Source of the DNA: Candidatus Woesearchaeota archaeon
GTDB taxonomy: Archaea; Nanobdellota; Nanobdellia; SCGC-AAA011-G17; PNOQ01
NCBI GenBank assembly: GCA_964393215.1
Contig: CAYMSW010000003.1
Coordinates: 1 to 45,843 of the forward strand
Direction of reading: 5' to 3'
DNA: 45,843 bases
The notes below the pieces were generated by a model. It saw only the letters and a program-made list of their open reading frames with translations, made no database searches and was not told the DNA's origin. Below, in pieces: positions 17,714-45,843 of the stretch. Made by a program: the position numbers and the translations under genes. Each line of letters begins with the position of its first letter. Position 1 is the first letter of the stretch.

Positions 17714-18901
17714 TCAAAGCTTCAGTCTGGATTTGGAAGCAAGCGTCCAATCCATGATATGAGCGTTTTGGGAATCCACACCGAGCCAGTTAATGGACAT
17801 CCCGCAACATCTGCATTCTGGTACGATCTCGTTTCGTTTCGATTCCCTATTGGTTTCTCTCAAGGCTTTCCAAAACCGGTTGTTCCAAAAATCATCAATC
17901 GAATGCTTCAGTATATTGCCACTGTCGTATTGCCCAGTAGCCACTTTATTCATGAACAAGATTTCACCGGCAGCGCACGGGTAAAGCTCTCCCCCAGGAG
18001 CTATGAACAAAGATCGCCAGGGCTCTTTGCAATCGCGCTCCATAATGCAGTTCTGCCCGAATAAGGGCTGGTAATCCAGTTTCATATTTAACCTGTCAGC
18101 AAGTGCGATAGCTTCAGAAACCGCGAGATTGCTTTCCTCCTGATGAAAGTATAGGGAATCTTCGGGTGATATCTGTATGCTTCCATCTGCCTTTTGGCGA
18201 AATTCTTTGGGATATATGCGAACATATACTGCCTTAACGCCATCTATCCCAATGTCCGATGCCAACTTGATGAAGCTCCCTAACTCTCCAATGTTTTGTT
18301 TCATGAGAATTATAGAAATACTGATACCTGACATGGACCTTAAACGTCGCCGCAGTCGAACAAGTTCACGGATATGGTTACAAACTTGTGCAAAGGCGGG
18401 GATACCAGAGATTTGTCGATAAGTTTTTTCTGTAGCGGCATTCAGGGAAATTAGGAAATTTACCCTGTTTTCCAGCAACGTTCTGACCGTCGCTTCATCG
18501 AAAGCGATGAAATTGGTAATAACAGAGTGCGAAACAGTCGGACATCTTCTTCTGGTGAAAGCAGCGATTTCTGAGAGCTCTGGATTTAAGAAGGGTTCGC
18601 CCCCTCCGCCGTAGATCACCTCTATTAATTGATTTGCATCTAGATGACCGAATATTTTTTTTATTTTTCCAAGGGTTAATCTTTCTGCAGAACCACAGTT
18701 CCTGTAGTCGCTCCCGCACATAATGCAGGCCGAATTGCATGAATCGATCATCAACAGATTTAGGGACGATGGTCCGAAATTGATATCGGTGATACCTTTT
18801 CGGGCAGTTCTATTTAGCGTGAAATCTGTTCTTTTCATCCGGGCAAAACCCGTTCCTCTTGCTATCAACTCTCTAAATCCCATTATTGAACTATTTCTCA
18901 A
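17714..18901 (-). CDS. Radical SAM enzyme with C-terminal SPASM/twitch-type auxiliary cluster region
   Basis: CNSACIMC (CX3CX2C) in LLMIDSCNSACIMCGSDY. C-terminal CKEPWRSLFIAPGGELYPC (CX12GX4C), then PECRCCG. The TTG start 18901..18899 has GGAG 8 nt upstream. An alternative ATG is at 18883. Confidence 0.8.
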   Translation of the reverse strand: MRNSSIMGFRELIARGTGFARMKRTDFTLNRTARKGITDINFGPSSLNLLMIDSCNSACIMCGSDYRNCGSAERLTLGKIKKIFGHLDANQLIEVIYGGGGEPFLNPELSEIAAFTRRRCPTVSHSVITNFIAFDEATVRTLLENRVNFLISLNAATEKTYRQISGIPAFAQVCNHIRELVRLRRRLRSMSGISISIILMKQNIGELGSFIKLASDIGIDGVKAVYVRIYPKEFRQKADGSIQISPEDSLYFHQEESNLAVSEAIALADRLNMKLDYQPLFGQNCIMERDCKEPWRSLFIAPGGELYPCAAGEILFMNKVATGQYDSGNILKHSIDDFWNNRFWKALRETNRESKRNEIVPECRCCGMSINWLGVDSQNAHIMDWTLASKSRLKL

Positions 18902-31081: not shown

Positions 31082-32239
31082 TCAATAAGTGATCTGTTTT
31101 TGAATGTTGAATTCAAATTTTTTTAGGATTTCAACCATTTGGAGGCCAGCATTACCTTTTCCGTAAAGGTGATTTGGTTTGTATGCACCGTGTTCAACCT
31201 GTTTCAATACCGCGTTTATTATCAGTTCCCGATCGTAACCGACATCAATTACATTGGCGCAACGTTCTCTTCCATTCTGGCGTGATCCAATATTGACGGA
31301 AGGAACACCCATAAATGCAGTTTCGCGTATGCCACTGCTGGAATTTCCTATCAGGCTGGCAGAATTGTTTAGTAACGGTGCATAAAGCTCTATGGGCAGG
31401 CTTTTGAAGAAATGGATATAATCGATATTATCCTTTTCCCTAAGCATCCTTAACCCTTTGGATATCCCATCTGACCCAGCGTCCATATTGGGCCATATCC
31501 ATATTGTCTTCATTTTTAATTCGGTGACGGCTGCGATGGTTTCATTGATATGATCCAGATTCTGACGATACTCTGTGGTCACAGGATGCTGGAGTACTAC
31601 CAAATACGGGCTGCTCAAATCCACCACAGCCCCTACACCAGAGGTTTTCTGGAGTTCCGTCAGCTGACGGATGTCGGACAGGTCCAACTCCGCGATGACG
31701 TCAAGGCTGGTGGAGCCCACTGGGAAGATCGAATCGGGGGACTCCCCCATTTTTTCGATACGCCGGGCAGCGTCCTCGGTGGCCGGGAAGTGGAGATGGG
31801 CCAATTTGGTAATCGCATGCCGGATGCTCTCGTCGATGGAGCCGGACACCTCACCTCCTTCCACGTGGGCAACCGGTATATTCATATAGGCTGCTGTCAT
31901 GGCCACCGGCAGGCATTCAAAGCGATCGGCGATGACCACGACAATATCAGGTTTTAAATTCTCAAAAGCCGTGCTAAACTCTGAAACGGCCAACCCTGCA
32001 GATTTGGCCATAGTTACAGGATTCTCACCCTCCACCAGGAAATGAATCACGCGATCTATCGGGATCCCATTCTCATCAAATGATCTGGAGATATTGCCGT
32101 ATTTGGCTAGTATGGCACCGCCTCCGATGATGATCTGCAATTCCAGTCCAGGCTCGGCTCTGATGTGTCTGATGACCGATTTCATTTTGGCGTAATTCCC
32201 CCGTGTCGTTACCACGAGACATATCTTTATTCGTTTCAC
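31082..32239 (-). CDS. neuC: UDP-N-acetylglucosamine 2-epimerase, hydrolysing type (NeuC/LegG family)
   Basis: Motifs: KICLVVTTRGNYAKMKSV and HVEGGEVSGSIDESIRHAITKLAHLHF; the latter is the hydrolysing-type signature, compare E. coli NeuC HIHGGEKT...DEFIRHSITKMSKLH. The track start is GTG 32254. I prefer GTG 32239..32237 (VKRIKICLVV), which makes a GTGA overlap with the neuB stop and has GGGAGA 7 nt upstream. Confidence 0.85.
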   Translation of the reverse strand: MKRIKICLVVTTRGNYAKMKSVIRHIRAEPGLELQIIIGGGAILAKYGNISRSFDENGIPIDRVIHFLVEGENPVTMAKSAGLAVSEFSTAFENLKPDIVVVIADRFECLPVAMTAAYMNIPVAHVEGGEVSGSIDESIRHAITKLAHLHFPATEDAARRIEKMGESPDSIFPVGSTSLDVIAELDLSDIRQLTELQKTSGVGAVVDLSSPYLVVLQHPVTTEYRQNLDHINETIAAVTELKMKTIWIWPNMDAGSDGISKGLRMLREKDNIDYIHFFKSLPIELYAPLLNNSASLIGNSSSGIRETAFMGVPSVNIGSRQNGRERCANVIDVGYDRELIINAVLKQVEHGAYKPNHLYGKGNAGLQMVEILKKFEFNIQKQITY

Positions 32240-33264
32240 TTCAAATTCTCCCACTTAATCACTGTATCCATGTCCATATCTGTTTTAGTTATTTTACCGA
32301 TCACATCTTCCAGTCGGTCCGGGGAAATACCGGTTCCTGGCCGTTTGCAGCACAGCGTGTCCACTGTCAACACGTCCCCTTTTTTCACTTTGCAGGCTGT
32401 CACCACGCTTTTACGCGCCCATTTCAAATTGACCAGTTCCTCCGGCCCCGGATGCTTCACACCAGTCCCCATTCCCATTTCTATCTCACGAATTTGGCGA
32501 ACCATTTCAGGAAGGTCCGTTTTTCCGCAGGATACTTTCCAATCCTGGGCATTTGGAACATTGTAGTCGAGGGTGATATGCTTTTCAATGATGTCTGCCC
32601 CCATAACCGCCGCAGCAATAGGAAAATGAAATCCACGGGTATGATCAGAATACCCGGTTACGACTTTAAATCGATCTTTAATGGTTTCGATGGCGCGCAG
32701 ATTTACTTCAACTGCCGGTGTTGGGTATCGGGTCACACAATGCAACACTGCTATATCCGGATTACCAGCACTTTCAAAAATCGCAAGGGCATCATTGATT
32801 TGGGACAAGGTGTACATGCCTGTAGAGAGAATGACCGGTTTCATTCTCGACGCGATTTTCCTGAGATAGGCCCAGTTGGAAATGTCGCCGGATCCAATTT
32901 TGTACGCCGGGACGTCGAGATGGTCCAACACCTTCAGGCTGTCTTCATCGTGTGCTGTGGCCAGAAATGTGATGTTGTGTTCCTCACAGTAACCGGAGAT
33001 CTCACCAAAAGCTGCCGGAGGAAGTTCCTTCGGTTTCAACCGATCGATCCACTCCATCGAAGCTTTTGAGATCAGGCTTTCGGTCTGGAATATTTGAAAT
33101 TTGACAGCATCCGCCTTGGAAGATACAGCGAGGTCCACCAGTTGAAATGCCTTTTCTAAATTTCCGAAATGGGCCACGCCTGCTTCAGCGATGATATAAA
33201 CCGGCTGATCCTTTCCGATCAGCCGGTCATCAATGGTAAGATTGCACGAAAAAAAAGAGTCCAT
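32236..33264 (-). CDS. neuB: N-acetylneuraminate (nonulosonate) synthase, NeuB/LegI/PseI family, with C-terminal SAF domain
   Basis: Motifs: PVYIIAEAGVAHFGNLEKAFQLVDLAVSSKADAVKFQIF, GYSDHT, and a C-terminal SAF-like segment ACKVKKGDVLTVDTLCCKRPGTGISP. ATG start. Confidence 0.9.
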   Translation of the reverse strand: MDSFFSCNLTIDDRLIGKDQPVYIIAEAGVAHFGNLEKAFQLVDLAVSSKADAVKFQIFQTESLISKASMEWIDRLKPKELPPAAFGEISGYCEEHNITFLATAHDEDSLKVLDHLDVPAYKIGSGDISNWAYLRKIASRMKPVILSTGMYTLSQINDALAIFESAGNPDIAVLHCVTRYPTPAVEVNLRAIETIKDRFKVVTGYSDHTRGFHFPIAAAVMGADIIEKHITLDYNVPNAQDWKVSCGKTDLPEMVRQIREIEMGMGTGVKHPGPEELVNLKWARKSVVTACKVKKGDVLTVDTLCCKRPGTGISPDRLEDVIGKITKTDMDMDTVIKWENLK

Positions 33265-33355
33265 TCTTATAAGTATTTATTCGATTGCATTGCCATAGGT
33301 GCTTTGTCTTACATGGGATGGATGTGGATTCCGACACGACTTATATCAGCGCACA

Positions 33356-34087
33356 TCAAATCTCCTGAGAAAAAAAACGGATCGGAACATGTGGTAAGGA
33401 GACACATGCCGATTTCAGCAAAGCCTCTGCAATGGGTATGTCCTCCGGCTGATCCACGTCATACGCATAAGATCTTTCGATTTCGACGACCGCACAGGGC
33501 TCTGTATAAAAACTGCCGGTTTCCAGCAAGGCCCGTGTTCGAACCGCGATTAAGTTGCCAAAAGTGTAAAGTGAAGGTTTCATCTGTTTGTTATAAGCAG
33601 TATTTCTTTCTTCACGGTAAAGAAACCTGGCCCTGCCATTAACCTCCTCCCGCTGGTTCCACGCATGACTGTTATGAGAAACAGGCGTTATATTATGGCA
33701 GGATTGCGCTTCCGGATCATTCTCCAGGGCATCCAGTAACTGGGAAACATGCTCCGGCAGCAAGAAAGGGCTTGTTGGCTGTACAAGGACCAGGACATCG
33801 GGAATGGATGGACGATGCCGATTCAAAAAATCCAGTGCGACTTCACCAACGGGTATTTCATCTCCTGAAAGCTTTTCGGGCCTGAGATCGGCACCTGCAC
33901 CGAGGTCCTTTGCACACTTGAGGATGGCATCATGATCCGACGAACAGATCACCTTTTCCAACCGATTACTGGCAAGTGCCGCTCGAATACCGTACTCCAT
34001 CAACCGTAGCCCACAAATCGGAAACAGATTTTTCAAAGGGATGCTTTTTGAGCCGCCCCTTGCCGGAACAAATGCCCACGTTTTCAT
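33356..34087 (-). CDS. neuA: Acylneuraminate (nonulosonate) cytidylyltransferase, NeuA/LegF family; short form without a C-terminal esterase domain
   Basis: AFVPARGGSKSIPLKNL is the N-terminal signature of CMP-NeuAc/CMP-Kdo synthetases. 243 aa. ATG start with AAGGAAAG 4-5 nt upstream. It begins 11 nt after the stop of the B12-radical SAM gene. Confidence 0.85.
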   Translation of the reverse strand: MKTWAFVPARGGSKSIPLKNLFPICGLRLMEYGIRAALASNRLEKVICSSDHDAILKCAKDLGAGADLRPEKLSGDEIPVGEVALDFLNRHRPSIPDVLVLVQPTSPFLLPEHVSQLLDALENDPEAQSCHNITPVSHNSHAWNQREEVNGRARFLYREERNTAYNKQMKPSLYTFGNLIAVRTRALLETGSFYTEPCAVVEIERSYAYDVDQPEDIPIAEALLKSACVSLPHVPIRFFSQEI

Positions 34088-34098
34088 AATGCTTTCCT

Positions 34099-36177
34099 TT
34101 AGGCGGGGTGTGGAGACCTGAGAAACTTTTTGACATACGCTTTGCTCAGGATCCTGGCAATTCCCGCAGTATCATTGCCATACAGGGAAACCATTCGGCT
34201 GATCGTTTCCCGTTGCTCCCGGCTGTGCACAAATACAAAAGGTCTGGAACCACCCATGTCATAAGGGTCGATTTCCACCGGGTTGCGACCGTTGAGAAAT
34301 CCGGAGATATCGTAACGGAATTTCGTTACGATATCTTTCGGTTCCTCACTCCATAAATCTTTCATTCGGGCCGCGTCAAAAGCAACAGCATCATCCAGGA
34401 AACGAAAATAGGATTCCCCTTTCACTCCTTTGGATCTAAGGAGTTGGATGGCCGTGTCTTTCGCCGCTGTTTGAAGTTTATCCGCGTACAAACCCATGCA
34501 CTTGGATTTATAGGTAAACATCAAATTGTAGCCCATCTCTCCATCAATGTATCTCTCAATCACACCGGGTTGAAGGAGGAATTCTGCCAACTCCTTTTTA
34601 TCTCGCCACAATTCATTTTTCGTTTCGCACATAAACTCTGAAACTGGCTTTCCAAGTTCTCCTTCAGAGGCCGCTTCACTAAGCAATTCAAGCCAGGAAA
34701 AAATGGGTATGTCGATCAATTTTAAAAACTTCAGCAATGCTGAAAAGACAGAGTCGTTGTAAAATATGCCAATCATCAGGTGGACTTTCCGGCAATCCAA
34801 ATAGTCTTGGAAATTGAGGGTATTTGTCGCGACACAGATCTCCTCAATTTCAAAAGATTTCAGTGGGTGTTCTCCCAATTGGAATTTCCCAAAAGCACGC
34901 GGTAAAGCCCTGTAACGCGAGATCATACCGAATTTTTCCTTAACAGAACCGAAGGCGATCTCACTTCCCGGCAAAAGCATCAATTGATAGGGCATCACCC
35001 GCTTGAATCTCATCTCTATAAGGGCTGAAAGGGAATCGTAATGGGACTTTTTGGTTTCACCCGGCAGCCCTAGGATCACCTCACTATAGGAATTCGCATC
35101 CATCTCAGTAGCTTCTATTGCCAATTCCAATAATGCTTCTGTGGAAATATTCTGGCGTTTAATATTCGAAAGTACGTTTGGGTCCAGAGTTTGCACTGAT
35201 CCGGCAAGGCGCAGAGAACCTTTTAGCTGCTTTGCGGTTTCGAGAACCCTTTTTTTATTATTTTTCCCGGTGGCGACATTAATATACTCAGGAAACTTGG
35301 AGTCTTTTTTGATGCGCCCAATGGCTTCAGCCAATCGTACATCATCCGGATACATTCCGAAATTGGAATCGGCGATATTGAGATCTCTCCGGCCCTCCAG
35401 CTTCTCTTGGGATCTGACTTTATTGGCAATATACTCGATTTCCTCTGTTACTTTCTCCAATCCGTTGCTATGGACTTTCGAAAAATGGTTGTCACCCTCG
35501 ACGCAATAGGTGCAGCTAAACGGGCATCCCCTGTGCAGTTGTATGATTGGCAGCAGTTTGCCATCGAAAAAATCATCCAATTTACCATTAAGATAAGGAG
35601 ACGGAAATCCCGATAGGTTCTTGATCCTTGGGGATGCATCGGGTAAAATCGCACTCCCTTCCTTGTTAATACAATGGACGGAGGGAAGAGCCAAATTCTT
35701 AACCTTTTCAACGTTATCGTCAAACTCATGCAACGCTTCAATTAGACGGACTAGGGTTATTTCACCTTCAAATGTGATATAAAAATCGATTTCTTTCCGT
35801 TTTTTTAAAAATGATTCTCTTCCTATTTTTGAAACTGGATAGTTCGGACCGCCGAAGATGACGATTGTCTCCGGACAAATCTTTTTAATAATAGAGCCAA
35901 AGGTCGAAGATAGGGTGCTGTTCCAGATATAATTGCTAAAACCAATGATGTCAGGCGGCGATTCATTCTCCAGTGCAGATATTAATTTTTCCGGATATTT
36001 GAACAACTGTACTGGTTCGCTAAGCTTCAGGTGAGCCTCTGCATAAGCGGATAGGCACCCAATGGCATAAGGGACCAGTTCTGCGGAGATCTGCATCTGA
36101 GTATATGTCAGATCCGCCAGCCATATTTTCTTTTTGATGGTTTTTCTCTTTCCAGGAATCATAAATTCATATTTCAT
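34099..36177 (-). CDS. Class B (cobalamin-binding domain) radical SAM enzyme with a long C-terminal extension
   Basis: 692 aa. B12-binding-type N-terminus (DIIGFSNYIWN...IVIFGGPNYP), then CPFSCTYC (CX3CX2C) in IQLHRGCPFSCTYCVEG. The roughly 250-aa C-terminal region is unassigned. ATG start. Confidence 0.8.
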   Translation of the reverse strand: MKYEFMIPGKRKTIKKKIWLADLTYTQMQISAELVPYAIGCLSAYAEAHLKLSEPVQLFKYPEKLISALENESPPDIIGFSNYIWNSTLSSTFGSIIKKICPETIVIFGGPNYPVSKIGRESFLKKRKEIDFYITFEGEITLVRLIEALHEFDDNVEKVKNLALPSVHCINKEGSAILPDASPRIKNLSGFPSPYLNGKLDDFFDGKLLPIIQLHRGCPFSCTYCVEGDNHFSKVHSNGLEKVTEEIEYIANKVRSQEKLEGRRDLNIADSNFGMYPDDVRLAEAIGRIKKDSKFPEYINVATGKNNKKRVLETAKQLKGSLRLAGSVQTLDPNVLSNIKRQNISTEALLELAIEATEMDANSYSEVILGLPGETKKSHYDSLSALIEMRFKRVMPYQLMLLPGSEIAFGSVKEKFGMISRYRALPRAFGKFQLGEHPLKSFEIEEICVATNTLNFQDYLDCRKVHLMIGIFYNDSVFSALLKFLKLIDIPIFSWLELLSEAASEGELGKPVSEFMCETKNELWRDKKELAEFLLQPGVIERYIDGEMGYNLMFTYKSKCMGLYADKLQTAAKDTAIQLLRSKGVKGESYFRFLDDAVAFDAARMKDLWSEEPKDIVTKFRYDISGFLNGRNPVEIDPYDMGGSRPFVFVHSREQRETISRMVSLYGNDTAGIARILSKAYVKKFLRSPHPA

Positions 36178-36212
36178 TTTTCACAAAAAGATAACTGTTC
36201 AAAAAACAACAG

Positions 36213-36305
36213 CTAACAGGTTGAAGAAAAACAACCACCGCCCACTAAAACGATAATCTTAACCGCAATAATGGGAATGTACCGTTGAATCCCTTTCCGT
36301 TCCAT
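36213..36305 (-). CDS. Candidate small ORF (30 aa), hydrophobic peptide ending GGGCFSSTC; unproven
   Basis: My own translation gives ATG GAA CGG ... TGT TAG = MERKGIQRYIPIIAVKIIVLVGGGCFSSTC. The ATG (36305..36303) overlaps the TGA stop of the SPASM radical SAM gene (TGATG). A second in-frame ATG lies one codon upstream at 36308. No SD. It is too short to appear in the ORF track. Confidence 0.2.
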   Translation of the reverse strand: MERKGIQRYIPIIAVKIIVLVGGGCFSSTC

Positions 36306-37330
36306 CATTTCAGAGACCACTTTTTTGGTAGAAGTAATGATAGCCAAGGTTGAGCAGTCAATTGTTTACATGTAAGGCAGGGGCCACTCTTCATCGACCA
36401 GATGGCCATTTGTCTACGCCATTTGAGGAAGCGCTCCGAACCATATATGGACAACAAATTGCCACCCGAACCATTTGAATGACCTATGATAAACTTTTCA
36501 TGTTGATCAAGATCACCACGCAAGTTACAGCATGGCATGACTGTGCCATCATAATCCATTGTAAAGTTGTGAAAAATCTGCATGCATGGTGACGTTCTCT
36601 TGAAATCTTTGTCACGAAGATCGGTCAACGTTCCTCCACGATCAAAACCCTGTTTACCGTAGTTTACGCAATTGGTCGTTATTGACATCGATACTCCGTA
36701 CAATACCGTGGAAAGGGAATTTTTTTCCACGTATAAATCACCGCACTTCAAACCAAGCTTTCGGGCAACTCTGTCGATTTTCTCTTCTGCCAACCTCTGA
36801 TTCCAGTTTTGTTGTTTGCCGAGGTAAACACTAATATGTAAACGATTCAATCCCTTCTTTGCCAATTGGCCTAGTAGTGCTTTATCGAGAAAATCTCCAT
36901 TGGAGATAATCATGGTGGTCGCTTTCGGGCAGATCTTTCTTGCAAGTGAAATCATCTCAAGAATCATCTCTGGCTTATACAGCGGTTCCGAGTATCTTGA
37001 AAAACGGATCTGTCCTGCATAATCCATATCCGCAAGTTGATGCAAACAACTATCATAGAGTTCCATTGGGAAAAAGTCACAATTATTATTTTTGTGACGC
37101 GCCACCAAAATATTCGAACAGAAATCACAGTTTCTGTTGCAATAATTATGAGGCTCTAGTTCAAAAATCCGTATATGACGTACAAATGTCTCTGATAGGC
37201 GTTTTTCATCCAAATTGTCTTGGAATAGGCTTTTATCTTTTAGTTCTCTATGGAAGCTATTCCATATTCGCCAGTGATCCAATTTGGACAGAAAGGTACT
37301 TTTCATTCGAGTTATAATGTTTCTTGTCAT
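36305..37330 (-). CDS. Radical SAM enzyme with C-terminal SPASM/twitch-type auxiliary cluster region
   Basis: CNRNCDFC (CX3CX2C) in LEPHNYCNRNCDFCSN. C-terminal CMQIFHNFTMDYDGTVMPC (CX12GX4C), then GPCLTCKQ. ATG start. Confidence 0.8.
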   Translation of the reverse strand: MTRNIITRMKSTFLSKLDHWRIWNSFHRELKDKSLFQDNLDEKRLSETFVRHIRIFELEPHNYCNRNCDFCSNILVARHKNNNCDFFPMELYDSCLHQLADMDYAGQIRFSRYSEPLYKPEMILEMISLARKICPKATTMIISNGDFLDKALLGQLAKKGLNRLHISVYLGKQQNWNQRLAEEKIDRVARKLGLKCGDLYVEKNSLSTVLYGVSMSITTNCVNYGKQGFDRGGTLTDLRDKDFKRTSPCMQIFHNFTMDYDGTVMPCCNLRGDLDQHEKFIIGHSNGSGGNLLSIYGSERFLKWRRQMAIWSMKSGPCLTCKQLTAQPWLSLLLPKKWSLK

Positions 37331-37377: not shown

Positions 37378-38613
37378 TCATAATTGTTTCAATCCGATCT
37401 CATTTGGCATAGAAAATGAAAGTGGACTATTAGCAGAACCTTCTATTTTCTCTTCTAATGAAGTAAGATTTACTTTTTTTAAAAAACTGCCCGGTTGTGC
37501 ATTTCTGATAATGTCAAGCACACACCGCGCCATAAAAACTTCGCTGGGATGCATGCCGTCAAACATACACGTATCCTCCATTTCATAAAAGGATGGGTCA
37601 ATTGCAGCAATACATGGTATTTGATTTTGCATTAGAATCTTTGGTAACTCCTTTTTGTATTTTTTCCATACATTGCTCGTGTGTTTGTTACTTTCTAGTT
37701 CTTGTAACACTTCCGTTGAAAAAGGCGGCATAAAAGTATAAACTTCAATTCCTTTTTTTGCTAATGAATTAAGAGAATCAATCAAGACGCTAATGAGAAT
37801 GGGGTCCGGTCCTGTCAAATAGCCAGGTCTCTTTACACGAACGATGACCGGTGGTACCTCTCGGTCCCTATAAAATGGATTAGTAATGAAATCTAATAGA
37901 ATCTTAGGATCATACTGTCTACTACCATCCGAACGGAATCCTCTACCCTCTTGAATTGCTGCAATTCCGATGGAAGGAAAACCGAAATAAGGAGATTTCG
38001 ACCTCCAGCCTTTAAAAACGGCATCCCAGGGTACATCTTCCTGTTTACGTATGAAATTCAAACCAATTCTGAGGTGATCTGTAAATTCTGGCAACCAGTC
38101 CAGGAACTGCCATTTTTCAAACCTGTTCTTGGGAGACCGCATTTTGTTGAACCACCATGGATCTATTCCAAGGATAACCACTTTAGGTTTGTGATTTTTT
38201 CCGGTAGTAATATATTCGCAATATGATTTAAATTCGTATACATTTCGAACCAATCCACCATAATTATAGACTACGTGCTCAAGCGGGTTAAACATAAAAT
38301 CACGAACCTGCATAACCCTGGAACTGCCCAATACAACAATATCCGCATGTTTATTTTTTAGAACTTGTCTTTTATAATAGAAAAAATTGTGTGAAATATA
38401 CTTTCTACCATATAAAAATTCTTTCATTCCCATTTGCTTAAATGCGACAAGAGCCACCGGCCATGATTCACCGGTCCTGAAAAGTGAAAATTCAAATAAT
38501 CCAATCAAAACAAAAAGTGGGAGAAAAAAAACTGAAACTCTGACGCTGAAATTAAACAGCCCATGTTTTTTAGAATTGGAAATAGATAAATGGGACATTA
38601 TTCGAAACACCAT
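37378..38613 (-). CDS. DltD-like membrane-anchored SGNH-type acyl-transfer protein (partner of the MBOAT)
   Basis: N-terminal TM (VRVSVFFLPLFVLIGLFEF). Motifs: DIVVLGSSRVMQV (compare DltD YGSSEL), VVILGIDPWWFNK (compare B. subtilis DltD VSPQWFNKKG, from memory), and C-terminal FDGMHPSE (D..H). The start is ATG 38613 or 38598, and either overlaps the MBOAT 3' end by 44 or 29 nt. Confidence 0.55.
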   Translation of the reverse strand: MVFRIMSHLSISNSKKHGLFNFSVRVSVFFLPLFVLIGLFEFSLFRTGESWPVALVAFKQMGMKEFLYGRKYISHNFFYYKRQVLKNKHADIVVLGSSRVMQVRDFMFNPLEHVVYNYGGLVRNVYEFKSYCEYITTGKNHKPKVVILGIDPWWFNKMRSPKNRFEKWQFLDWLPEFTDHLRIGLNFIRKQEDVPWDAVFKGWRSKSPYFGFPSIGIAAIQEGRGFRSDGSRQYDPKILLDFITNPFYRDREVPPVIVRVKRPGYLTGPDPILISVLIDSLNSLAKKGIEVYTFMPPFSTEVLQELESNKHTSNVWKKYKKELPKILMQNQIPCIAAIDPSFYEMEDTCMFDGMHPSEVFMARCVLDIIRNAQPGSFLKKVNLTSLEEKIEGSANSPLSFSMPNEIGLKQL

Positions 38614-40000
38614 ATTTAAGAATCAGGGCAATTATCATATAATAAATGAACCACCTGACCCACAATGGCAAATAGGCTATATCTAGGCCATGTGCACGTT
38701 TTCTGTTAACCCATTCAATACCAAACAATAAAATTGATGATAGAACAAACTGTCTTGTGGGTAGTGATACAATATCCCATCTTCCATCTACTAGGCGATT
38801 GAGCATTCCTGTGGCTTGACTCATTGTCTGTGCTCGAAAAAAAATCCAGGCAAATGTAACGAAGGTAAAGGTGATGGTGATTTGGCATAGTTCTCTTAAG
38901 GATGGTATTCCTGTTTCCTCAGCAACAACATTGGAATGCCCGTAAAAACCTGGAATTAAACGAAATGTGAAATATAAAGTACCATGAATCAGTCCCCATG
39001 CGATAAACGTCCAATTCGCGCCATGCCAAAGTCCACTCACGCCGAATGTTATTAATACGATTCCAATCCATCTCAATCTTCCCACTCTATTACCGCCGAG
39101 CGGAATATAGACATAATCGCGGAACCAGGTTGAAAGAGATATGTGCCATCTCTGCCAAAATTCAGAAAGACTTCTAGCGAAATAGGGATTGTTAAAATTT
39201 CTACGAAGGTTAAAACCCACTAAACGGGCAGATCCAATGGCAATATCTGAATAACCTGAAAAATCACAATAAATCTGAACCGCAAAACAAGAAGAACCAA
39301 TAACAATATCCAAACCACTCAGATCGTGATAACCCTCGAAGGCCAATTCAACAAATACTGACAGGTTATCGGCGATTACCGTTTTTTTAAAAAGCCCCCA
39401 CAATATCTGTCTAAGACCATCTTTTGCATGGGAAAGATTAAATTTGCGTTCACATTTGAATTGAGGCAACAAATGTTTGGCACGTTCAATAGGCCCGGCG
39501 ACTAATTGGGGGAAAAAAGCAACAAAGGCAAAGAAAGCCAATGGATCTCTCGTTGGTTTAATTTGCCGACGATAAATATCAATTGTATAGCTCAGGGTTT
39601 GAAAAGTATAAAAACTGATCCCAACGGGAAGAATTATATTCAACGAGGGGATATTTGGCTCAATACCTGCCCGTGAAAGAAGTTGAGCAAATGAATTTAC
39701 GAAAAAACCAAAATATTTGAATATGAATAGGAGGCCTATATTTACGGAAACGCTAATCAACAAAAGCAATTTCCTTTTTGGGGATTCAATTTCATTTTCC
39801 AGTTTGATTCCAATGATATAATCGGTCACAGAGCTTATTAATATTAAGCTTAAAAAACGAGGATCCCACCACCCGTAAAAGACATAGCTGGAGAAAAGAA
39901 TAAACGCATTTTGTATTTTAACTGTCCTATACTGGATCAACCAGTAAACAATGAACACAATCGGCAGGAAAATTGCGTATGCGATAGAATTGAAATACAT
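38570..40000 (-). CDS. MBOAT-family membrane-bound O-acyltransferase (AlgI/DltB/PatA-like)
   Basis: MYFNSIAYAIFLPIVFIVYWL is a typical N-terminus. It carries the invariant-His motif FWQRWHISLSTWFRDYVYIPLGGNR and is multi-TM throughout. ATG start. Confidence 0.9.
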   Translation of the reverse strand: MYFNSIAYAIFLPIVFIVYWLIQYRTVKIQNAFILFSSYVFYGWWDPRFLSLILISSVTDYIIGIKLENEIESPKRKLLLLISVSVNIGLLFIFKYFGFFVNSFAQLLSRAGIEPNIPSLNIILPVGISFYTFQTLSYTIDIYRRQIKPTRDPLAFFAFVAFFPQLVAGPIERAKHLLPQFKCERKFNLSHAKDGLRQILWGLFKKTVIADNLSVFVELAFEGYHDLSGLDIVIGSSCFAVQIYCDFSGYSDIAIGSARLVGFNLRRNFNNPYFARSLSEFWQRWHISLSTWFRDYVYIPLGGNRVGRLRWIGIVLITFGVSGLWHGANWTFIAWGLIHGTLYFTFRLIPGFYGHSNVVAEETGIPSLRELCQITITFTFVTFAWIFFRAQTMSQATGMLNRLVDGRWDIVSLPTRQFVLSSILLFGIEWVNRKRAHGLDIAYLPLWVRWFIYYMIIALILKYGVSNNVPFIYFQF

Positions 40001-40140: not shown

Positions 40141-41859
40141 TTATGAATACAATGTCTGTGTTTCCGTTGAGCGGAGAGGCATGCAGTTTGTTGGAAAATC
40201 CACTAATTGATAATTAAAGGATATCTCCTTGACAGATCTTGTATAGATTGTGAAATTGCCGTTTGATTTCAATTTGTCAAACTGATCTTTGGTGCCTGTA
40301 ATTTCTAAAGCTTTTCTCAGCATTGCATCGTTATCATTTCGAATGACAATATATCGGGCATTATTTAATACTTTTTTTAACCATTTTTCATTTTCAGGGA
40401 AATAGCGATCTTTTGTTGTCGGCACCATATAAAGAGGCAATCTTTGAAAACAATATACGTTTTCAAACTCATAGAATGCCTGATAGGCCGGATAATCGGT
40501 GACAATAGATGTGTAATATGGATCAATTTTATTCCTTAAATCCCAAACAAGGGATGCATCAACACCCCTTTTCTTAAAAGTCGTATATAATTGTGCAGGT
40601 GAACTATCGAACAAAAACAAAGATAAGAAGCCTACGGTGCTGAGGACCATGCAAAACCGGATGATCCAGCGCCTGCTCAGTATCTCCAAATGACGAAAAA
40701 GGAACAGCGCGAGCAAACAGAGCGTGAAAAACAGATGCCACCTGGGACTGGTGAAGAATTGTTTTAAAAACACGGTATCGCCACCACCCAACTCCAGGGC
40801 TAATAACTGGACGAAAACAGCCAAAGCAGGGAGCAACACCAGGGATACCGAAATCCATTTTTGGTGCCTGTGGTTTTTGGGAAATTTTACGATCCATATG
40901 AATAAAAGAGCGGCTGCCATGAATGCACTGGCCATCACAAGAAAAATCAGATGGTGAAGGAATCTCTTACACAGAGCAAGCAGGTGGGGATAGCCTGCTA
41001 TCCATTTATAAATAATCGGCAATCCAGGAATTCCCCCGTAAATGCTCCAAGGGAACTGGGCCCATTTGTAATAAATCAAGGTAACAATCAGTAGTAAAAA
41101 CCAGTTCGCCGCCAAAAAAAAATAAAAGCCGGACTCTTTTGACCCTCTGGCCCTCAGCCCCCCCAGGGCTATAAGAAATCCGGCGATAAAAAGTCCCTCT
41201 TCCCTCGCCATCAGACAGAGGGCATTTGCCATCAAAAAAATTTCGATACGGTTTTTTTTGTACAGAATGGCGATAAACAGAAGCGCGGACATCGGTGCCA
41301 ATAAGTTGTAGGAGCGGAGGTCATATCCCACCGCCGACCAAGTTGTCGGCCACAAGAGATAGGTAAGAGAGACCCAGAATACCGGGATTTGATCCTCCCG
41401 AGACATATTTTGGGATGCCGAGCTGTAGAGGTAAGACGGAACCGAAAACAGAATCGCCGAAATAAAGGCGAATACAAAGAAAATGTTTCCACCCAAAGAA
41501 TACAACAATGCGTAGATATATTTGGACCCAACGAAATGGATCGTCTTGTGGAATCCCCCTTCCCCCTCGACGCCATGAAATCCGAACATATTACGACCGT
41601 TGGGATTCAACGAATAGCGATTCGTAAGGTTCTCGTCCCCCAGTTTAGCAGCAAACTGGGCATAGAAAGCATAATCCTTCTGTTGAAATCCCAGAGCCCT
41701 TTTTTTTTCCGATACAAAAACCAGCGAAAGACAAAAAGCGATAATGGAGATCACCAATATCCATACTTTTTTTGACCGCCACATAGATTGATCAAGGTTC
41801 ATGAAGAAAGGCTTGATGATGTCAGTTAAATATCCCGGATGAATTTTTTGTCGACGCAA
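40141..41859 (-). CDS. Polytopic membrane protein, DUF2079-like / GT-C-like (tentative)
   Basis: 572 aa. After TM1: KDYAFYAQFAAKLG...GGFHKTIHFVGSKYIYALLYSL, reminiscent of the DUF2079 pattern D.g.f.Q ... H..p....l.P. About 12 hydrophobic spans follow, then a soluble C-terminal roughly 130 aa. The start is uncertain: TTG 41859 in the track, with in-frame ATGs at 41802 and 41784. Confidence 0.5.
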   Translation of the reverse strand: MRRQKIHPGYLTDIIKPFFMNLDQSMWRSKKVWILVISIIAFCLSLVFVSEKKRALGFQQKDYAFYAQFAAKLGDENLTNRYSLNPNGRNMFGFHGVEGEGGFHKTIHFVGSKYIYALLYSLGGNIFFVFAFISAILFSVPSYLYSSASQNMSREDQIPVFWVSLTYLLWPTTWSAVGYDLRSYNLLAPMSALLFIAILYKKNRIEIFLMANALCLMAREEGLFIAGFLIALGGLRARGSKESGFYFFLAANWFLLLIVTLIYYKWAQFPWSIYGGIPGLPIIYKWIAGYPHLLALCKRFLHHLIFLVMASAFMAAALLFIWIVKFPKNHRHQKWISVSLVLLPALAVFVQLLALELGGGDTVFLKQFFTSPRWHLFFTLCLLALFLFRHLEILSRRWIIRFCMVLSTVGFLSLFLFDSSPAQLYTTFKKRGVDASLVWDLRNKIDPYYTSIVTDYPAYQAFYEFENVYCFQRLPLYMVPTTKDRYFPENEKWLKKVLNNARYIVIRNDNDAMLRKALEITGTKDQFDKLKSNGNFTIYTRSVKEISFNYQLVDFPTNCMPLRSTETQTLYS

Positions 41860-41891
41860 CGAAAGTTCAAATGAAATGGACCGATCTGGTT

Positions 41892-43229
41892 TTATATCCC
41901 CAGCCGTTTTGATTGAAGGGACTGAAACTTATTGTGCGAATCGAATCGATGTTTGAATGCAATAAAATCCCGAGCCTTCGAATAGCTTCCAAAAAACATT
42001 CCCTCGCTCATGCGCGCATCTTTGGTCAGGTACAACCGCCCTCCGAAATCAAGTACTATACGATCGAGAATATCGAGAAAACTGAATAGATCCCGCGTAA
42101 TGGGAAGATCCAACGTTAGCGTGTAGCCTCTCATTGGGAATGAGATGGGATTGTCGGAGGCATTCCCAAACAGTTTTAAAACCGCCAGGAATGATCCCAT
42201 TTTATACTTCTTGACCAAGCTTAATACCTCGGAAAGGCCCTCATGACTGCTTTCTTTAGGTAGAACCAGCTGGTACTGGGTAAATCCCCTTTTTCCATAC
42301 AACCGATTCCAGTTACCGATAAAATCCAGTGGATAAAAATAGGTGTCGTAGTCCAGAAGGCGATGTTCGACCTTGGAACGTTGTTTCCGATAGAAAAGCT
42401 CGTTGAATAATCGAATGGAAAGAGCGTTCAGGGTCTGATCGGGCAAGGCAATGGGGATATTGATAGTTTTTTTTCTCTGGAAGTCCAAGGGACCACTTTC
42501 GGATACCGTCATATCGATATCCCTCAACGATGCGTGCTCACCAAGTAGTAAAATGCTGCGTCCGATATCCGTTCCCATTTGTAAGCAGTCGATCCAGGCG
42601 ACTGAATAGGTGGTATCTTCCAGCGCTTCAAAAAGACGCATGGTTTCTTTGAGGTTTTCGGTCTGAATCGCAGTCTGCCGGATGAAACAGGTTTCAATTT
42701 TTTTCAGCCGGATGGTTGCACAGACGATGATACCGGTGAGTCCCATGCCACCACATGTACTTTTAAACAATTCGATGTTATGGGTTTTGGAGCAAGTCAC
42801 CACCTCTCCATCACTTAACATCACCTCCATCGATAGAACATGATCTGTAAAAGAACCGGAATTGTGGTGATTTTTTCCGTGGACATCGGACGCGATTGCG
42901 CCTCCGACGGTGATGAATTTAGTCCCGGGTGTAACCGGCAGAAACCAGCCTCTGGGCATAAAAGTATCAATTATTTTCTTCAGGCATACACCGCTCTCGC
43001 AGTTCAACAGTCCGGACTGTTCATCAAAAGATAGAAAATGCCGGAAACTTTCGGTGGATATGATGGTGTGATTCAGGGATGAATCTCCGTAACAACGCCC
43101 CATTCCCCTGGCTATGCACTGATCCATTTGCCATAGAAGTTCTCGCAACGCCTCTACAGAGCGAAAATGTGATAGTTCCGCCTGAATCACCGGGTAATTC
43201 CCCCAGTTGGTTATTTTCTTGATTGGCAC
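41892..43229 (-). CDS. FAD-dependent oxidase of the DprE1 (decaprenylphosphoryl-beta-D-ribose 2'-oxidase) family
   Basis: Colinear, from memory, with M. tuberculosis DprE1. Pairs (this protein vs DprE1): NWGNYP vs [16 protein letters not shown] vs [37 protein letters not shown] vs [64 protein letters not shown] vs [40 protein letters not shown] vs FGGRLYTAKDSR. GTG start 43229..43227. Confidence 0.9.
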   Translation of the reverse strand: [445 protein letters not shown]

Positions 43230-43281
43230 TTTAAATCATCACCGTAAAACTGCAGTAAACGTTTGCACTTCGATCCGCCCA

Positions 43282-44748
43282 TTATGCGAATGTGTTTAAC
43301 CTTCGTTTCAGCGTAACCTTCAGCATTTTCAAAGCGGTTTTCATTTTGGCATAGTGATTTACCGAATGCTTGGACTCTCCACCAAGCCGCTTATAATAGC
43401 TAACGGGGATCTCGATTATTCTTTTACGGCAAATCAACATGGCGATCATCATCTCCGTCGAAAAACCGGGTCCGTCGTCTTTCAAATAAGGCAGAATATC
43501 ATGATAACTGGATTTCCATATGGCGCGGTAGGTACATCCCACATCTGTAAAACGGGGTTCCTGCCCCCACCAGAGAAATTCGATAAATTTTCCAAAAAAC
43601 ACATTGGCCCAGCGTGTGATGGAGTCCATATTGGCACCCTGCTCGATCATCTGCCTGGTTGTACGTGTCCCGATGGCCATGTCACAGTCCTTTACATACT
43701 CAAGCAGTTTAGACAGATCTTTGGCCTTGAAGCTGCCATCGGCTTCCGTCAATACGACGATGTCCCCTCGGGCCGATTTCAACCCCCGGCGCAGGGCACA
43801 TCCGTAGCCCTGTTTCGTTTCACGAATCACTTTGGCACCGGATTTCACCGACAATTCGTGGGTTTTGTCCCGGGAATTGTTATCCACTACCAACACCTCA
43901 TCCACTTGCGGATGGTTTCTATAGTCTTCAATCACCTGGACAATGGTGGCCTCCTCATTGTAGGCGGGAATCACAAGACTTACGGTCGTTTTGTCGAAAT
44001 TCACATTGCGTATAAAATAGTTGGCAAGGTTGCAGTCCTCCCTTGTTGCAATATTTGTATAATCAAGATCCAAAGTGCAGTAAACGAGGGTTTCCGTTTT
44101 TGCCATGTTGGAAAGGGCGTCCGTGATTTCCACCTCGTTTCGCAGGTTTGACCTTTCGGTCCTTGTCAAAAAATTGAAGACTTTGTCAGTGAGCAGATAG
44201 GTACCCATGCCCATCAAGTCTGTGTTTGGATTCTCGGGCTTTTCTATAAGCTGTTGGACTTTTTCGCCATCGAACCGGCCGATATAATTTCGGCTCACCA
44301 CCCGGGGGTCCTTCTCCCGTTTGAAGGTCAAAACGCCGGCAACGTCCTTGTTTTTATATTCGAGCAATCGAAAATGATCGGATCCCAGGTATAGCTCATC
44401 TCCTAGCATCACAACGAATGCACAGCCCAGCAAGTCCTGTTTCGTCTGGAGAAGGGCATGACCGATTCCTTTTTGCTCAGTCTGTTTCCGGTAAATGAGT
44501 TTTACACCCATGGGCCTCGCGTCAAAATACCGAACAATCTGGTCCCCCAGATATCCGATAACCACGATGATTTCTTGGATCTTTAGCTGATCCCTCATGA
44601 TCTCGATATTCCGCTCGATAAGGCTCTTGCCCCCAACCTGCATCAGAACTTTGGGAATATATTTTGTTGACGGATAGGCTCGCACCCCCTTTCCAGCCGC
44701 CAAGATGACGCCTTTCCAATCAGTATTGAGGTTTTTTGATTCCGACAT
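43282..44748 (-). CDS. Fusion protein: sugar-1-phosphate nucleotidyltransferase domain (N-terminal) + DPM1/GtrB-like GT2 domain (C-terminal)
   Basis: N-terminal: GVILAAGKGVRAYPSTKYIPKVLMQVGGKSLI...KGIGHALL...VVMLGDELY (RmlA/GlmU-type NTP_transferase). C-terminal: VSLVIPAYNEEATI, VLVVDNNSRDKT, GYGCALRRGLKSARGDIVVLTEADGS, and an amphipathic basic tail KMKTALKMLKVTLKRRL. ATG start 2 nt after the upstream stop. Confidence 0.8.
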   Translation of the reverse strand: MSESKNLNTDWKGVILAAGKGVRAYPSTKYIPKVLMQVGGKSLIERNIEIMRDQLKIQEIIVVIGYLGDQIVRYFDARPMGVKLIYRKQTEQKGIGHALLQTKQDLLGCAFVVMLGDELYLGSDHFRLLEYKNKDVAGVLTFKREKDPRVVSRNYIGRFDGEKVQQLIEKPENPNTDLMGMGTYLLTDKVFNFLTRTERSNLRNEVEITDALSNMAKTETLVYCTLDLDYTNIATREDCNLANYFIRNVNFDKTTVSLVIPAYNEEATIVQVIEDYRNHPQVDEVLVVDNNSRDKTHELSVKSGAKVIRETKQGYGCALRRGLKSARGDIVVLTEADGSFKAKDLSKLLEYVKDCDMAIGTRTTRQMIEQGANMDSITRWANVFFGKFIEFLWWGQEPRFTDVGCTYRAIWKSSYHDILPYLKDDGPGFSTEMMIAMLICRKRIIEIPVSYYKRLGGESKHSVNHYAKMKTALKMLKVTLKRRLNTFA

Positions 44749-44750
44749 GA

Positions 44751-45494
44751 TTACAAGTCCATCCTTTTGAAAAATCGCTCCGGGATGCTTTTAATGATCA
44801 GCATAATATATTTCCAAAACCATTTGGTATATATTTCATGCCGGTTTTTTTCCAAGGCATTGTAAATGTCTTCGGCAACTTGTTCCGGCTCGGCCATAAG
44901 GAGTTCCGGTAGTTTCAATCCCTCGGTCATGACAGTTCTAACATATCCGGGTTTGACAGTGATAACCTGAACATTCACCCGGCTCATTCTGCCTCTTAGT
45001 CCCGAAAGGTAGGCAGTCATCCCCGCCTTTGCGCTGCCGTACAGATAGTTGCTGCTGCGTCCCCGATCTCCGGCTACAGAACTGATTCCGATAATAAAAC
45101 CCCCTTTTCTTCTTTCAAAGTCAGCGGCTACGATATTGATGGCAGAAACGATTCCGGAAAAATTGGTGCTTATTATTTTACTGGCTTCCTCAAACTGCCT
45201 CTCAGCCGCCTTTTGGTCTCCCAGATAGCCGACGGCACAAACCAAACCCGATGGTTTTGGTTGCAGCCCCTCATAGAAAGCCTTGTGTTCTTGATGGTCC
45301 AGCGCATCGAAAACCATCGCTTTGGCATCTATAGAGTACCGAATTTTGAGATCTTCGGCTTCCCTTTCTAAGACATCCAATTCTCTTCCTGCCAGGTACA
45401 AATTAAAGCCCTCAGCTGCAAATCTCTTCGCAACAGCCCTGGCGATACCGGATGTAGCCCCAAGAATCAAAATGTAACGCTCAGCACTTTTCAT
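44751..45494 (-). CDS. Short-chain dehydrogenase/reductase of the DprE2 (decaprenylphospho-2'-keto-ribose reductase) type
   Basis: The track start is TTG 45512. I prefer ATG 45494..45492 ([20 protein letters not shown]) with GGAGGA 7 nt upstream. YGSAK is an intact YxxxK. Colinear with Mtb DprE2 from memory: [22 protein letters not shown] vs [30 protein letters not shown] vs IRPGQVRT; tail [23 protein letters not shown] vs [23 protein letters not shown]. Confidence 0.85.
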   Translation of the reverse strand: [247 protein letters not shown]

Positions 45495-45596: not shown

Positions 45597-45843
45597 TCAA
45601 TTCTCGTTTTTGGATAGCATCGCTTTTGTTGCCCAAGCATTTGGCTTAAAGTTACGGTCTTTTGGCAGATCATTGGTATTGAGTCGCGGCAGTATTAGCG
45701 GATTGGTCTTTGATAGATCGGCAATTCCGACCTCAACAGTCAAACCTGCAACACAGTTTCTGTTGCCAATCGTAGACAACAATGCATCGTTATATGCCCC
45801 ATAAGGATAACACATGATCCAACGGTCGGTGTTGGTACCTATG
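45597..45843 (-). CDS. Polysaccharide deacetylase (NodB-homology) family protein, C-terminal part only; N-terminus lies beyond the right window edge
   Basis: The reverse-strand frame is open from the window edge: ...IGTNTDRWIMCYPYGAYNDALLSTIGNRNCVAGLTVEVGIADLSKTNPLILPRLNTND.... The CYPYG..ND...L...G...A.T pattern is typical of the C-terminal part of NodB-type deacetylases. The internal Met in the track is not the true start. Confidence 0.55.
   Translation of the reverse strand, partial: IGTNTDRWIMCYPYGAYNDALLSTIGNRNCVAGLTVEVGIADLSKTNPLILPRLNTNDLPKDRNFKPNAWATKAMLSKNEN

Follow-up and report, generated by a model that had tools for sequence, protein, structure and literature searches.

How is a lipid-linked sugar made available for DprE1/DprE2-type epimerisation when the enzyme that usually starts the pathway is missing? 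In mycobacteria, DprE1 and DprE2 convert lipid-linked ribose to lipid-linked arabinose. The pair is an important target of tuberculosis drugs, and to our knowledge every described DprE1/E2-homologous system, in mycobacteria and in Gram-negatives alike, starts from phosphoribosyl pyrophosphate (PRPP) via a UbiA-type enzyme. The question is raised by a 45,843-nucleotide stretch from a Candidatus Woesearchaeota archaeon (contig CAYMSW010000003.1 of assembly GCA_964393215.1, positions 1 to 45,843; 'the window' refers to this whole stretch). Here a DprE2-like short-chain dehydrogenase/reductase (SDR), a fusion of a sugar-1-phosphate nucleotidyltransferase with a GT2 glycosyltransferase (FUS), a DprE1-like FAD oxidase (OX) and a polytopic membrane protein (MEM) follow one another on the minus strand. 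We argue that SDR-FUS-OX-MEM is probably a periplasmic-glycosylation operon, in which FUS would replace both the PRPP/UbiA step and the 5'-phosphatase, supplying the polyprenyl-phosphate-sugar that OX and SDR epimerise for a GT-C glycosyltransferase.

FUS lies in the gene position of UbiA beside DprE1-like oxidases

The original prediction, made by reading the window, had seen no UbiA-like or phosphatase gene near the cassette, and this holds. A UbiA hidden Markov model (HMM) built from 53 locus proteins has no match at E<=1 in the 45.8-kb window, whatever the frame. The JGI metagenome contig Ga0115649_1003131 (L001), which is 99% identical to the window and carries a 99% identical copy of FUS (P0001; an exact look-up gave no match), continues for 4.8 kb beyond the window edge before it ends, and neither UbiA nor a phosphatase is encoded in that additional stretch. 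Furthermore, UbiA is absent within 8-10 kb in the relatives that have the cassette, and the UbiA HMM has no match in any locus carrying both FUS and OX, the shorter loci included.

We tabulated 83 OX loci, 80 from a metagenome scan together with L087-L089. The canonical layout UbiA-[GtrA-like]-OX-SDR-[GT-C] is found in 50 of them, with L087 (Flammeovirgaceae bacterium 311) showing the UbiA-OX-SDR order, and FUS is present in none of the 80 loci from the metagenome scan. When the comparison is restricted to OX loci with >=3 kb on both sides, UbiA lies <=7 kb from OX in 22 out of 26 loci without FUS and in none of the four dereplicated loci with FUS (Fisher p=0.0026). Within this sample FUS and UbiA are mutually exclusive next to OX. 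FUS therefore holds the slot that is usually UbiA's: it is located either immediately upstream of OX-SDR, as UbiA is, or between SDR and OX, as in the window, where its start follows the SDR stop by 2 nt.

As to UbiA itself, the proteins encoded next to DprE1/E2 homologues in the metagenome OX loci (L090-L169) fall into two length classes, one of about 290-320 aa and one of about 480-500 aa; members of the larger class are presumably phosphatase fusions, like ORF15 of C. youngae. Most often the UbiA and OX genes are separated by one for a GtrA-like protein of about 130-150 aa. The sole FUS locus with a UbiA homologue nearby (L051:2664-3539, a Nitrospinia metagenome-assembled genome) has it ~3 kb from FUS and contains neither OX nor SDR.

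OX and SDR belong with DprE1 and DprE2

OX matches Pfam FAD_binding_4 (E=2e-18) and, over residues 4-444, positions 3-448 of the 449-position NCBIfam DprE1 model (E=1.6e-125). Its 419.8 bits fall under the 500-bit equivalog cutoff of this model, which is made from actinobacterial sequences; any other family scores <=51 bits. The alignment to M. smegmatis DprE1 (4aut; E=6e-82) spans residues 37-443 with an identity of ~40%, estimated by eye, while identity to UbiA-linked non-actinobacterial homologues is 50-54%. The DprE1-like family is very large (>=8000 scored candidates, all with E<=1e-20), and OX falls inside it as originally proposed, nesting among the UbiA-linked oxidases and sharing 54% identity with the oxidase of the canonical L087 operon.

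The active site was also compared. Nine positions that are catalytic or line the substrate pocket of M. tuberculosis DprE1 (Y60, H132, K134, W230, Q334, Q336, K367, Y415 and K418 in M. tuberculosis numbering) are all kept in OX, in the other FUS-linked oxidases and in 46/46 UbiA-linked ones. At 22/22 active-site positions checked, chosen on the basis of the M. tuberculosis DprE1 literature, OX has the residues of the UbiA-linked non-actinobacterial homologues. A search for residues that would set FUS-linked apart from UbiA-linked oxidases came back empty: no column of the alignment separates the two.

The original prediction had aligned the segment GWNICVDFP of M. tuberculosis DprE1, which holds the benzothiazinone-target Cys387, with GYTLTLDLP in OX, and had drawn attention to the missing cysteine. 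The 4aut alignment agrees, pairing GWNVCVDFP of M. smegmatis with GYTLTLDLP, so that Cys387 corresponds to Thr; the equivalent of the catalytic Lys418 is kept. We rejected the missing cysteine as a distinguishing trait, however, since Ala stands here in 43 of the 46 UbiA-linked homologues from outside the actinobacteria. On the sequences compared, Cys387 is thus a feature of the actinobacterial enzymes and not of the DprE1 family.

The DprE2-like label given to SDR also stands. SDR matches Pfam adh_short (E=1.5e-32) and NCBIfam PRK07102 (342 bits, over the cutoff of 267), and aligns with the NCBIfam DprE2 model along its full length at 165 bits, below the cutoff of 250. Its closest solved relative is the DprE2 chain 21gq_C of a DprE1-DprE2 complex entry (E=4e-26, 94.7 bits; the runner-up scores 58 bits). 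SDR shares an operon with OX in the window, and SDR homologues adjoin OX in nearly all OX loci. By this homology, OX would oxidise the C2 hydroxyl of a lipid-linked sugar and SDR would act as the 2-keto reductase.

FUS joins a nucleotidyltransferase to a polyprenyl-phosphate glycosyltransferase domain

The N-terminal domain of FUS matches Pfam NTP_transferase (E=1.6e-22) and, among NCBIfam models, the archaeal GlmU N-domain (147 bits), AglF (123 bits) and RmlA-long (115 bits). In good agreement, Foldseek superposes the AlphaFold model of FUS on the B. anthracis glucose-1-phosphate thymidylyltransferase 4ecm with a TM-score of 0.87; the best 50 matches of this full-length search are all nucleotidyltransferases, with no GT2 protein among them.

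The C-terminal domain matches Pfam Glycos_transf_2 (E=7e-24) and the NCBIfam models of AglJ (107 bits), dolichol-phosphate-hexose transferase (77 bits) and PpgS (56 bits). Searched against the PDB, the profile of this domain (244 positions) matches the Pyrococcus dolichol-phosphate-mannose synthase 5mlz over positions 4-231 (E=5e-21) and ArnC over positions 9-219 (E=3e-14), whereas the soluble-acceptor enzyme GpgS is matched over positions 9-92 only, that is, over the N-terminal nucleotide-binding half. This bears out the earlier view that the domain is DPM1-like and not of the soluble-acceptor type. The FUS proteins have no hydrophobic segment and the AlphaFold model has no transmembrane (TM) helix. 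Human DPM1 and D2 of M. tuberculosis Ppm1 are likewise without a C-terminal anchor, which is therefore not strictly defining. What the model does show is an aromatic helix of the interface type (RWANVFFGKFIEFLWW) and, at the C-terminus, a helix that is basic and amphipathic.

FUS is widespread. A word-indexed search returned >1600 homologues, including >120 full-length fusions at E<1e-138, and when each GTDB species was scanned by way of one genome, 531 stretches were confirmed as matches. The hosts are Desulfobacterota (which hold the closest relatives of the window's FUS), Planctomycetota, Acidobacteriota, Omnitrophota, Gammaproteobacteria, Leptospira, pathogenic species included, and some archaea. 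In most of ~70 genomes FUS is directly adjoined by one or two polytopic membrane proteins of 480-700 aa; the two clusters of these neighbours that were scanned are both PMT_2. This neighbourhood supports, but does not prove, a role of FUS as a polyprenyl-phosphate-sugar synthase that would feed GT-C enzymes.

Other FUS neighbours vary with lineage. In many Leptospiraceae loci (within L056-L081), those of L. alexanderi, L. borgpetersenii and L. alstonii among them, the gene after FUS encodes an extended-SDR epimerase/dehydratase, and in a subset that again includes these three species next come a stand-alone 234-aa GT2 and an EpsG-like membrane protein. We considered extended-SDR genes beside FUS, found in 22 other loci, as indicators of the sugar and rejected them, as they match generic epimerase/dehydratase models only. 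In the Blastocatellia loci L020, L021, L024, L028, L041 and L042 an amine-oxidase-type flavoprotein (PRK07233, 482 bits) and a polysaccharide deacetylase precede FUS, and two PMT_2 GT-C genes and a methyltransferase come after it, except in L041, where the contig stops. The flavoenzyme paired with FUS is here a different one, and an amino sugar on the lipid could be what it modifies.

The model of MEM shows a GT-C fold

MEM itself has no match in Pfam (E<=0.01), in NCBIfam or among PDB sequences. Its family is small: the word-indexed search found one relative only, and an exhaustive HMMER search gave 193 representatives among 1.8 billion proteins. An AlphaFold model computed with 43 family members (pLDDT 89.7, pTM 0.88) was compared with the PDB by Foldseek, and the top 16 matches are all GT-C enzymes (STT3, AglB, ArnT, ALG9, AftA), each with a probability of 1.00 and with modest TM-scores of 0.35-0.45. 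The family invariants are D43, just after TM1, G69, H89 and R200-E201-E202. Of the earlier description 'DUF2079/GT-C-like', the GT-C half is thus supported by the model, and the DUF2079 half weakly at most: DUF2079 (PF09852) does not match MEM and matches 5/43 relatives weakly (best E=3e-5), so that the relationship appears remote at most. Judging by its modelled fold, MEM is a candidate GT-C glycosyltransferase for the periplasmic transfer of the lipid-linked sugar.

Both L086 and L089 likewise have a MEM gene 3' of OX. Searching the other 170 loci with a profile of the MEM family brought up no member adjoining FUS or OX; three further MEM relatives are located alone or beside other GT-C genes and are uninformative as to the donor.

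The cassette recurs in different genomic settings

The gene order is conserved in relatives. The order SDR-FUS-OX-MEM is present on two other contigs, L086 and L089, in a rearranged locus without the deacetylase that precedes SDR in the window. The order FUS-OX-SDR is found in L002, L003, L004/L084 (an Olavius symbiont) and L083. Two PMT_2 GT-C genes come before it in L084, where lptFG, kdtA and lpxK also adjoin it; the genes ahead of it in L083 encode a deacetylase, two 9-TM proteins and GtrA, the last directly upstream of FUS. The cultured Halioglobus sp. Uisw_031, whose genome is complete, carries FUS, a 9-TM protein, two sulfotransferases, SDR and OX on an island between sua5 and scpA, with two small open reading frames (ORFs) upstream of FUS, one of which has two predicted TM segments. 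More divergent DprE1/E2-like genes are linked to FUS in L037 (FUS-SDR-OX) and in L080 (FUS/OX).

Could the genes be chance neighbours, or could OX and SDR act on an NDP-sugar or another metabolite instead of a lipid-linked sugar? Many unrelated enzymes are indeed packed into the window, a dense glycan locus of 45 kb, and both OX and SDR score under the NCBIfam equivalog cutoffs. Against this, the linkage is seen in at least five independent arrangements across lineages, with differing flanking genes, the score of OX on the DprE1 model (420 bits) dwarfs that on any other family, and the catalytic residues are conserved. We regard this explanation as very improbable.

A single FUS subclade contains all OX-linked members

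The FUS proteins linked to OX (8/8) all fall into a single FUS subclade of 12, while 0/55 of the remaining FUS are OX-linked. This subclade has 21 specific positions, 16 in the nucleotidyltransferase domain and 5 in GT2, and four of the latter five map to motifs of donor binding, namely the DNNS motif, the QGYG region and the position just ahead of the EAD motif. The oxidases show a different pattern: in a neighbour-joining (NJ) tree, those linked to FUS form at least three clades nested among the UbiA-linked ones. Pairwise identities, which are independent of the tree method, agree with the trees: between the window and L083, FUS is 66% identical and OX 40%, whereas the window's OX is 54% identical to the UbiA-linked oxidase of L087. 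DprE1/E2-type epimerases thus appear to have moved between UbiA-type and FUS-type systems. Our reading is that one FUS lineage may have gained a particular donor specificity, its product being a substrate of ordinary DprE1/E2-type epimerases.

The same data can be read differently, and this is the main rival. OX and SDR would be ordinary polyprenyl-phosphate-ribose 2'-epimerases fed by an unlinked UbiA, FUS would make a separate polyprenyl-phosphate-sugar (for example of glucose or N-acetylglucosamine) for MEM or another GT-C enzyme, and the genes would be neighbours because both donors decorate the same glycan. Consistent with two donors, OX cannot be told from UbiA-linked oxidases, L088 has OX-SDR without an adjoining UbiA, most FUS genes function without OX/SDR, two GT-C genes lie beside FUS-OX-SDR in L084, and the nucleotidyltransferase domain is hexose-1-phosphate-like. 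We nevertheless judge it unlikely that two parallel donors account for the pattern. UbiA adjoins OX in most well-flanked loci without FUS and in none with it, including the shorter loci; FUS lies in the exact UbiA slot or is wedged between SDR and OX; linkage to OX is restricted to one FUS subclade whose specific residues lie in donor-binding regions; and the Halioglobus island, set between housekeeping genes, has besides FUS, SDR and OX no more than one membrane protein and two sulfotransferases.

Proposed pathway and its sugar

From the domains, folds, operon, linkage and UbiA/FUS exclusivity, all obtained with computational tools, we infer the reactions, their coupling, the cellular location of the steps and the sugar as follows. 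The N-terminal domain of FUS would convert nucleoside triphosphate (NTP) and a sugar-1-phosphate to a nucleoside-diphosphate (NDP)-sugar, and its inverting GT2 domain would then load polyprenyl phosphate at the inner face of the membrane, giving a polyprenyl-phosphate-beta-sugar. The flavoenzyme OX would oxidise the C2 hydroxyl to a 2-keto intermediate, which SDR would reduce with inverted stereochemistry. The resulting donor would cross the membrane via a putative flippase, and MEM, as the GT-C enzyme, would hand the sugar to a surface glycan of the surrounding 45-kb polysaccharide locus. A cassette fed by a nucleotide sugar instead of PRPP, as originally proposed, is supported by the absence of a neighbouring UbiA, the type of GT2, the placement of OX and the gene order, none of which turned out as it would have to for refutation, and FUS would be coupled to OX and SDR within it.

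Several observations weigh against this scheme. The exclusivity test involves few, phylogenetically related FUS loci, which were ascertained through FUS, and the NJ trees are unbootstrapped. FUS does not need OX/SDR, since ~59/67 FUS genes have neither nearby. As OX-SDR without an adjoining UbiA exists (L088), a UbiA may lie elsewhere in the cassette genomes. No flippase of the GtrA, SMR or MATE type was found in the window, and a GtrA-like HMM built from 27 loci has no match there. The nucleotidyltransferase domain resembles hexose-1-phosphate enzymes (RmlA, GalU, AglF), and we know of no natural example of an NDP-ribofuranose donor. Finally, the activities given here to the cassette enzymes are predictions from comparative genomics.

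As to the sugar, we lean, by a small degree, towards ribofuranose to arabinofuranose, with the sugar entering as NDP-ribofuranose made from ribose-1-phosphate, over a hexose or another pentose; the reason for this leaning is that nothing in OX sets it apart from the UbiA-linked oxidases. From NDP-alpha-D-ribofuranose an inverting GT2 would yield the beta-D-ribofuranosyl phosphate that DprE1 uses, given the established stereochemistry of DPM1-type enzymes and of decaprenylphosphoryl ribose.

A sugar other than ribose, for which the original prediction left room, is possible, and a hexose, deoxyhexose or sulfo-hexose is a serious alternative because an NDP-ribofuranose is not known to us and the nucleotidyltransferase is hexose-1-phosphate-like. 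In this variant of our preferred explanation, which is in line with the original prediction, the cassette is coupled as above and the sugar is not a pentofuranose: FUS would load a hexose or a deoxy- or sulfo-hexose, for example glucose, a sugar derived from UDP-sulfoquinovose, or xylose, and inversion of C2 on the lipid would give a rare donor, of manno configuration or otherwise. In its favour, glucose- and N-acetylglucosamine-1-phosphate enzymes are the closest to the nucleotidyltransferase domain, an SqdB-like gene and a 2-hydroxyacid dehydrogenase gene are kept upstream in L001 and L086, and sulfotransferases lie beside the cassette in L008 and L083. Set against these are the identity of 22/22 pocket positions and the lack of any column that separates FUS-linked from UbiA-linked oxidases. 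Because oxidases have apparently been exchanged between the two types of system, which is easier to explain if both act on the same substrate, a common substrate is favoured. We consider the non-pentofuranose variant rather unlikely, while taking it seriously.

Returning to arabinofuranose, a broader proposal can be put forward tentatively, and we would not call it probable. The OX-linked FUS subclade may constitute a PRPP-independent route to D-arabinofuranose, running from ribose-1-phosphate via NDP-alpha-D-ribofuranose and polyprenyl-phosphate-beta-D-ribofuranose to polyprenyl-phosphate-arabinofuranose. In that case UbiA and the phosphatase would have been replaced non-orthologously by FUS, and the wider FUS family, present in >500 species, would serve GT-C enzymes generally as the 'activate and load' module that makes their donors.

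The locus and its surroundings

All ORFs were confirmed on the minus strand at the coordinates given in Table 1, in the transcription order deacetylase end, SDR, FUS, OX and MEM, and domain scans and translation agree with the five-gene arrangement first described. For MEM, the start is more likely at the ATG at 41802, which gives 553 aa.

Table 1. Genes of the cassette, the domains of FUS and the two flanking genes in the window
Feature	Coordinates	Strand	Length or residues	Basis and remarks
DprE2-like SDR	44751..45494	-	247 aa	Pfam adh_short
FUS, sugar-1-phosphate nucleotidyltransferase::GT2 fusion	43282..44748	-	488 aa	Pfam NTP_transferase, residues 12-227; Pfam Glycos_transf_2, residues 257-404
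FUS N-terminal domain, RmlA/GalU-type nucleotidyltransferase	44014..44748	-	residues 1-245	
FUS C-terminal domain, GT2 of the polyprenyl-phosphate glycosyltransferase type	43282..44013	-	residues 246-488	
OX, DprE1-like FAD oxidase	41892..43229	-	445 aa	Pfam FAD_binding_4
MEM, polytopic GT-C-fold membrane protein	40141..41859	-	572 aa	AlphaFold and Foldseek
Polysaccharide deacetylase, C-terminal part	45597..45843 (window edge)	-		Translation; Polysacc_deac_1 on L001; context gene
MBOAT/DltB-like membrane O-acyltransferase	38570..40000	-		Pfam MBOAT, E=9e-27; downstream of MEM; context gene

The deacetylase, whose C-terminal part is indeed present at the window edge, measures 280 aa in full on L001. 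It was considered as a member of the conserved core and rejected, because no deacetylase lies between the upstream genes and SDR in L086 and L089; deacetylases do recur adjoining FUS in other lineages. Besides the full deacetylase, the extra stretch of L001 encodes a methyltransferase, a 2-hydroxyacid dehydrogenase and an SqdB-like (UDP-sulfoquinovose-synthase-like) protein. The last two lie upstream of the cassette at L001:143-2258 and are kept at L086:1-1119; the SqdB-like protein scores 446 bits on the NCBIfam UDP-sulfoquinovose synthase model (cutoff 575). Sulfotransferases adjoin OX/SDR not only in L008 and L083 but also in the UbiA-type locus L087. The SqdB-like gene and the sulfotransferases may link these donors to sulfated or sulfonated glycans.

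Downstream of MEM, the MBOAT/DltB-like gene scores 160 bits on the NCBIfam DltB model, under the cutoff, and overlaps by 44 nt an ORF of 411 aa (37378-38613, minus strand) that has no family match; the two may form an AlgI/AlgJ-like pair for glycan O-acylation.

The remaining window is a large glycan locus with NeuB, NeuC, a CMP-transferase, several GT1/GT2 genes, methyltransferases and radical-SAM enzymes. In the minus-strand regions 31082-37330 and 17714-18901, a nonulosonic-acid set made up of a NeuC-like gene (31082-32254), NeuB (32236-33264) and the CMP-transferase (33356-34087) is accompanied by two radical-SAM/SPASM proteins and a B12 radical-SAM C-methyltransferase like KedN5 (34099-36177); the NeuB/NeuC set and its radical-SAM neighbours suggest an unusually modified sugar. 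Also on the minus strand, at 10227-15511, a GT2 of 255 aa (14744-15511) is followed by a 759-aa protein with DUF2304 and ALG3/ALG10-like regions (12457-14736) and then by a 722-aa protein without an assigned family (10227-12395). These genes are a possible second polyprenyl-phosphate-sugar/GT-C pair of the same locus.

Relation to known systems and significance

The cassette shares much with the mycobacterial decaprenyl-phosphate-arabinose pathway (UbiA/Rv3806c, the Rv3807c phosphatase, DprE1, DprE2, Emb/Aft): a DprE1-like oxidase with the catalytic Lys and His, an SDR whose closest PDB relative is DprE2 and a GT-C transferase gene downstream. It differs in having FUS in place of the UbiA-type PRPP transferase and the phosphatase, Thr in place of Cys387, and a MEM protein that is unrelated in sequence to Emb and Aft. 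The Gram-negative three-component pentofuranose systems make a cytoplasmic polyprenyl-phosphate-sugar, optionally epimerise it with DprE1/E2 homologues, flip it and transfer it by a GT-C enzyme, beginning with PRPP via a UbiA-type PPPRS, in many cases as a fusion with a phosphatase (Kelly et al., PNAS 2024, PMC11127046). These systems and the arabinosylation sets of P. aeruginosa (TfpW) and Azorhizobium (Noe) follow the same logic as the cassette, and OX is 54% identical to oxidases of such UbiA-OX-SDR sets; the window differs from them in that FUS would replace the PPPRS step and that no MATE, GtrA or SMR flippase was found there.

A second group of systems resembles the other half of the cassette. 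GtrA/GtrB/Gtr*, ArnC/ArnD/ArnT, PpgS/Rv3779 and CsbB/GtcA/YfhO likewise combine a GT2 fed by an NDP-sugar with an adjoining GT-C gene, and the polysaccharide deacetylase that recurs beside FUS parallels ArnD and the equivalent deacetylases of these systems. Unlike GtrB and ArnC, the GT2 of FUS is fused to its own nucleotidyltransferase and is without a TM anchor. We know of no system of the GtrB, ArnC, PpgS or CsbB type in which the lipid-bound sugar undergoes redox epimerisation by DprE1/E2-type enzymes, nor do the papers we found report one. The two halves of FUS are best or near-best on the models of the haloarchaeal AglF (a glucose-1-phosphate uridylyltransferase; 123 bits) and AglJ (a dolichol-phosphate-hexose synthase; 107 bits), so that FUS joins two consecutive steps known as separate enzymes. 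It nonetheless scores far below the respective cutoffs of 400 and 325 bits and, in contrast to AglF and AglJ, is a single polypeptide, is mostly bacterial and is linked here to OX/SDR. Our literature searches on the fusion, on DUF2079 and on an alternative arabinofuranose pathway found no description of FUS or of its pairing with DprE1/E2 homologues.

Since the cultured and fully sequenced Halioglobus sp. Uisw_031 (NZ_CP159826) carries a compact cassette, the question is directly testable. If our reading is true, there would be either a second entry to lipid-linked arabinofuranose, by way of a new sugar nucleotide, or DprE1/E2-type enzymes that epimerise other lipid-linked sugars. Either outcome would widen the known chemistry of lipid-linked donors and offer new tools for glycoengineering, and it would provide a first functional handle on FUS, a widespread and unstudied family that is present in pathogenic Leptospira.

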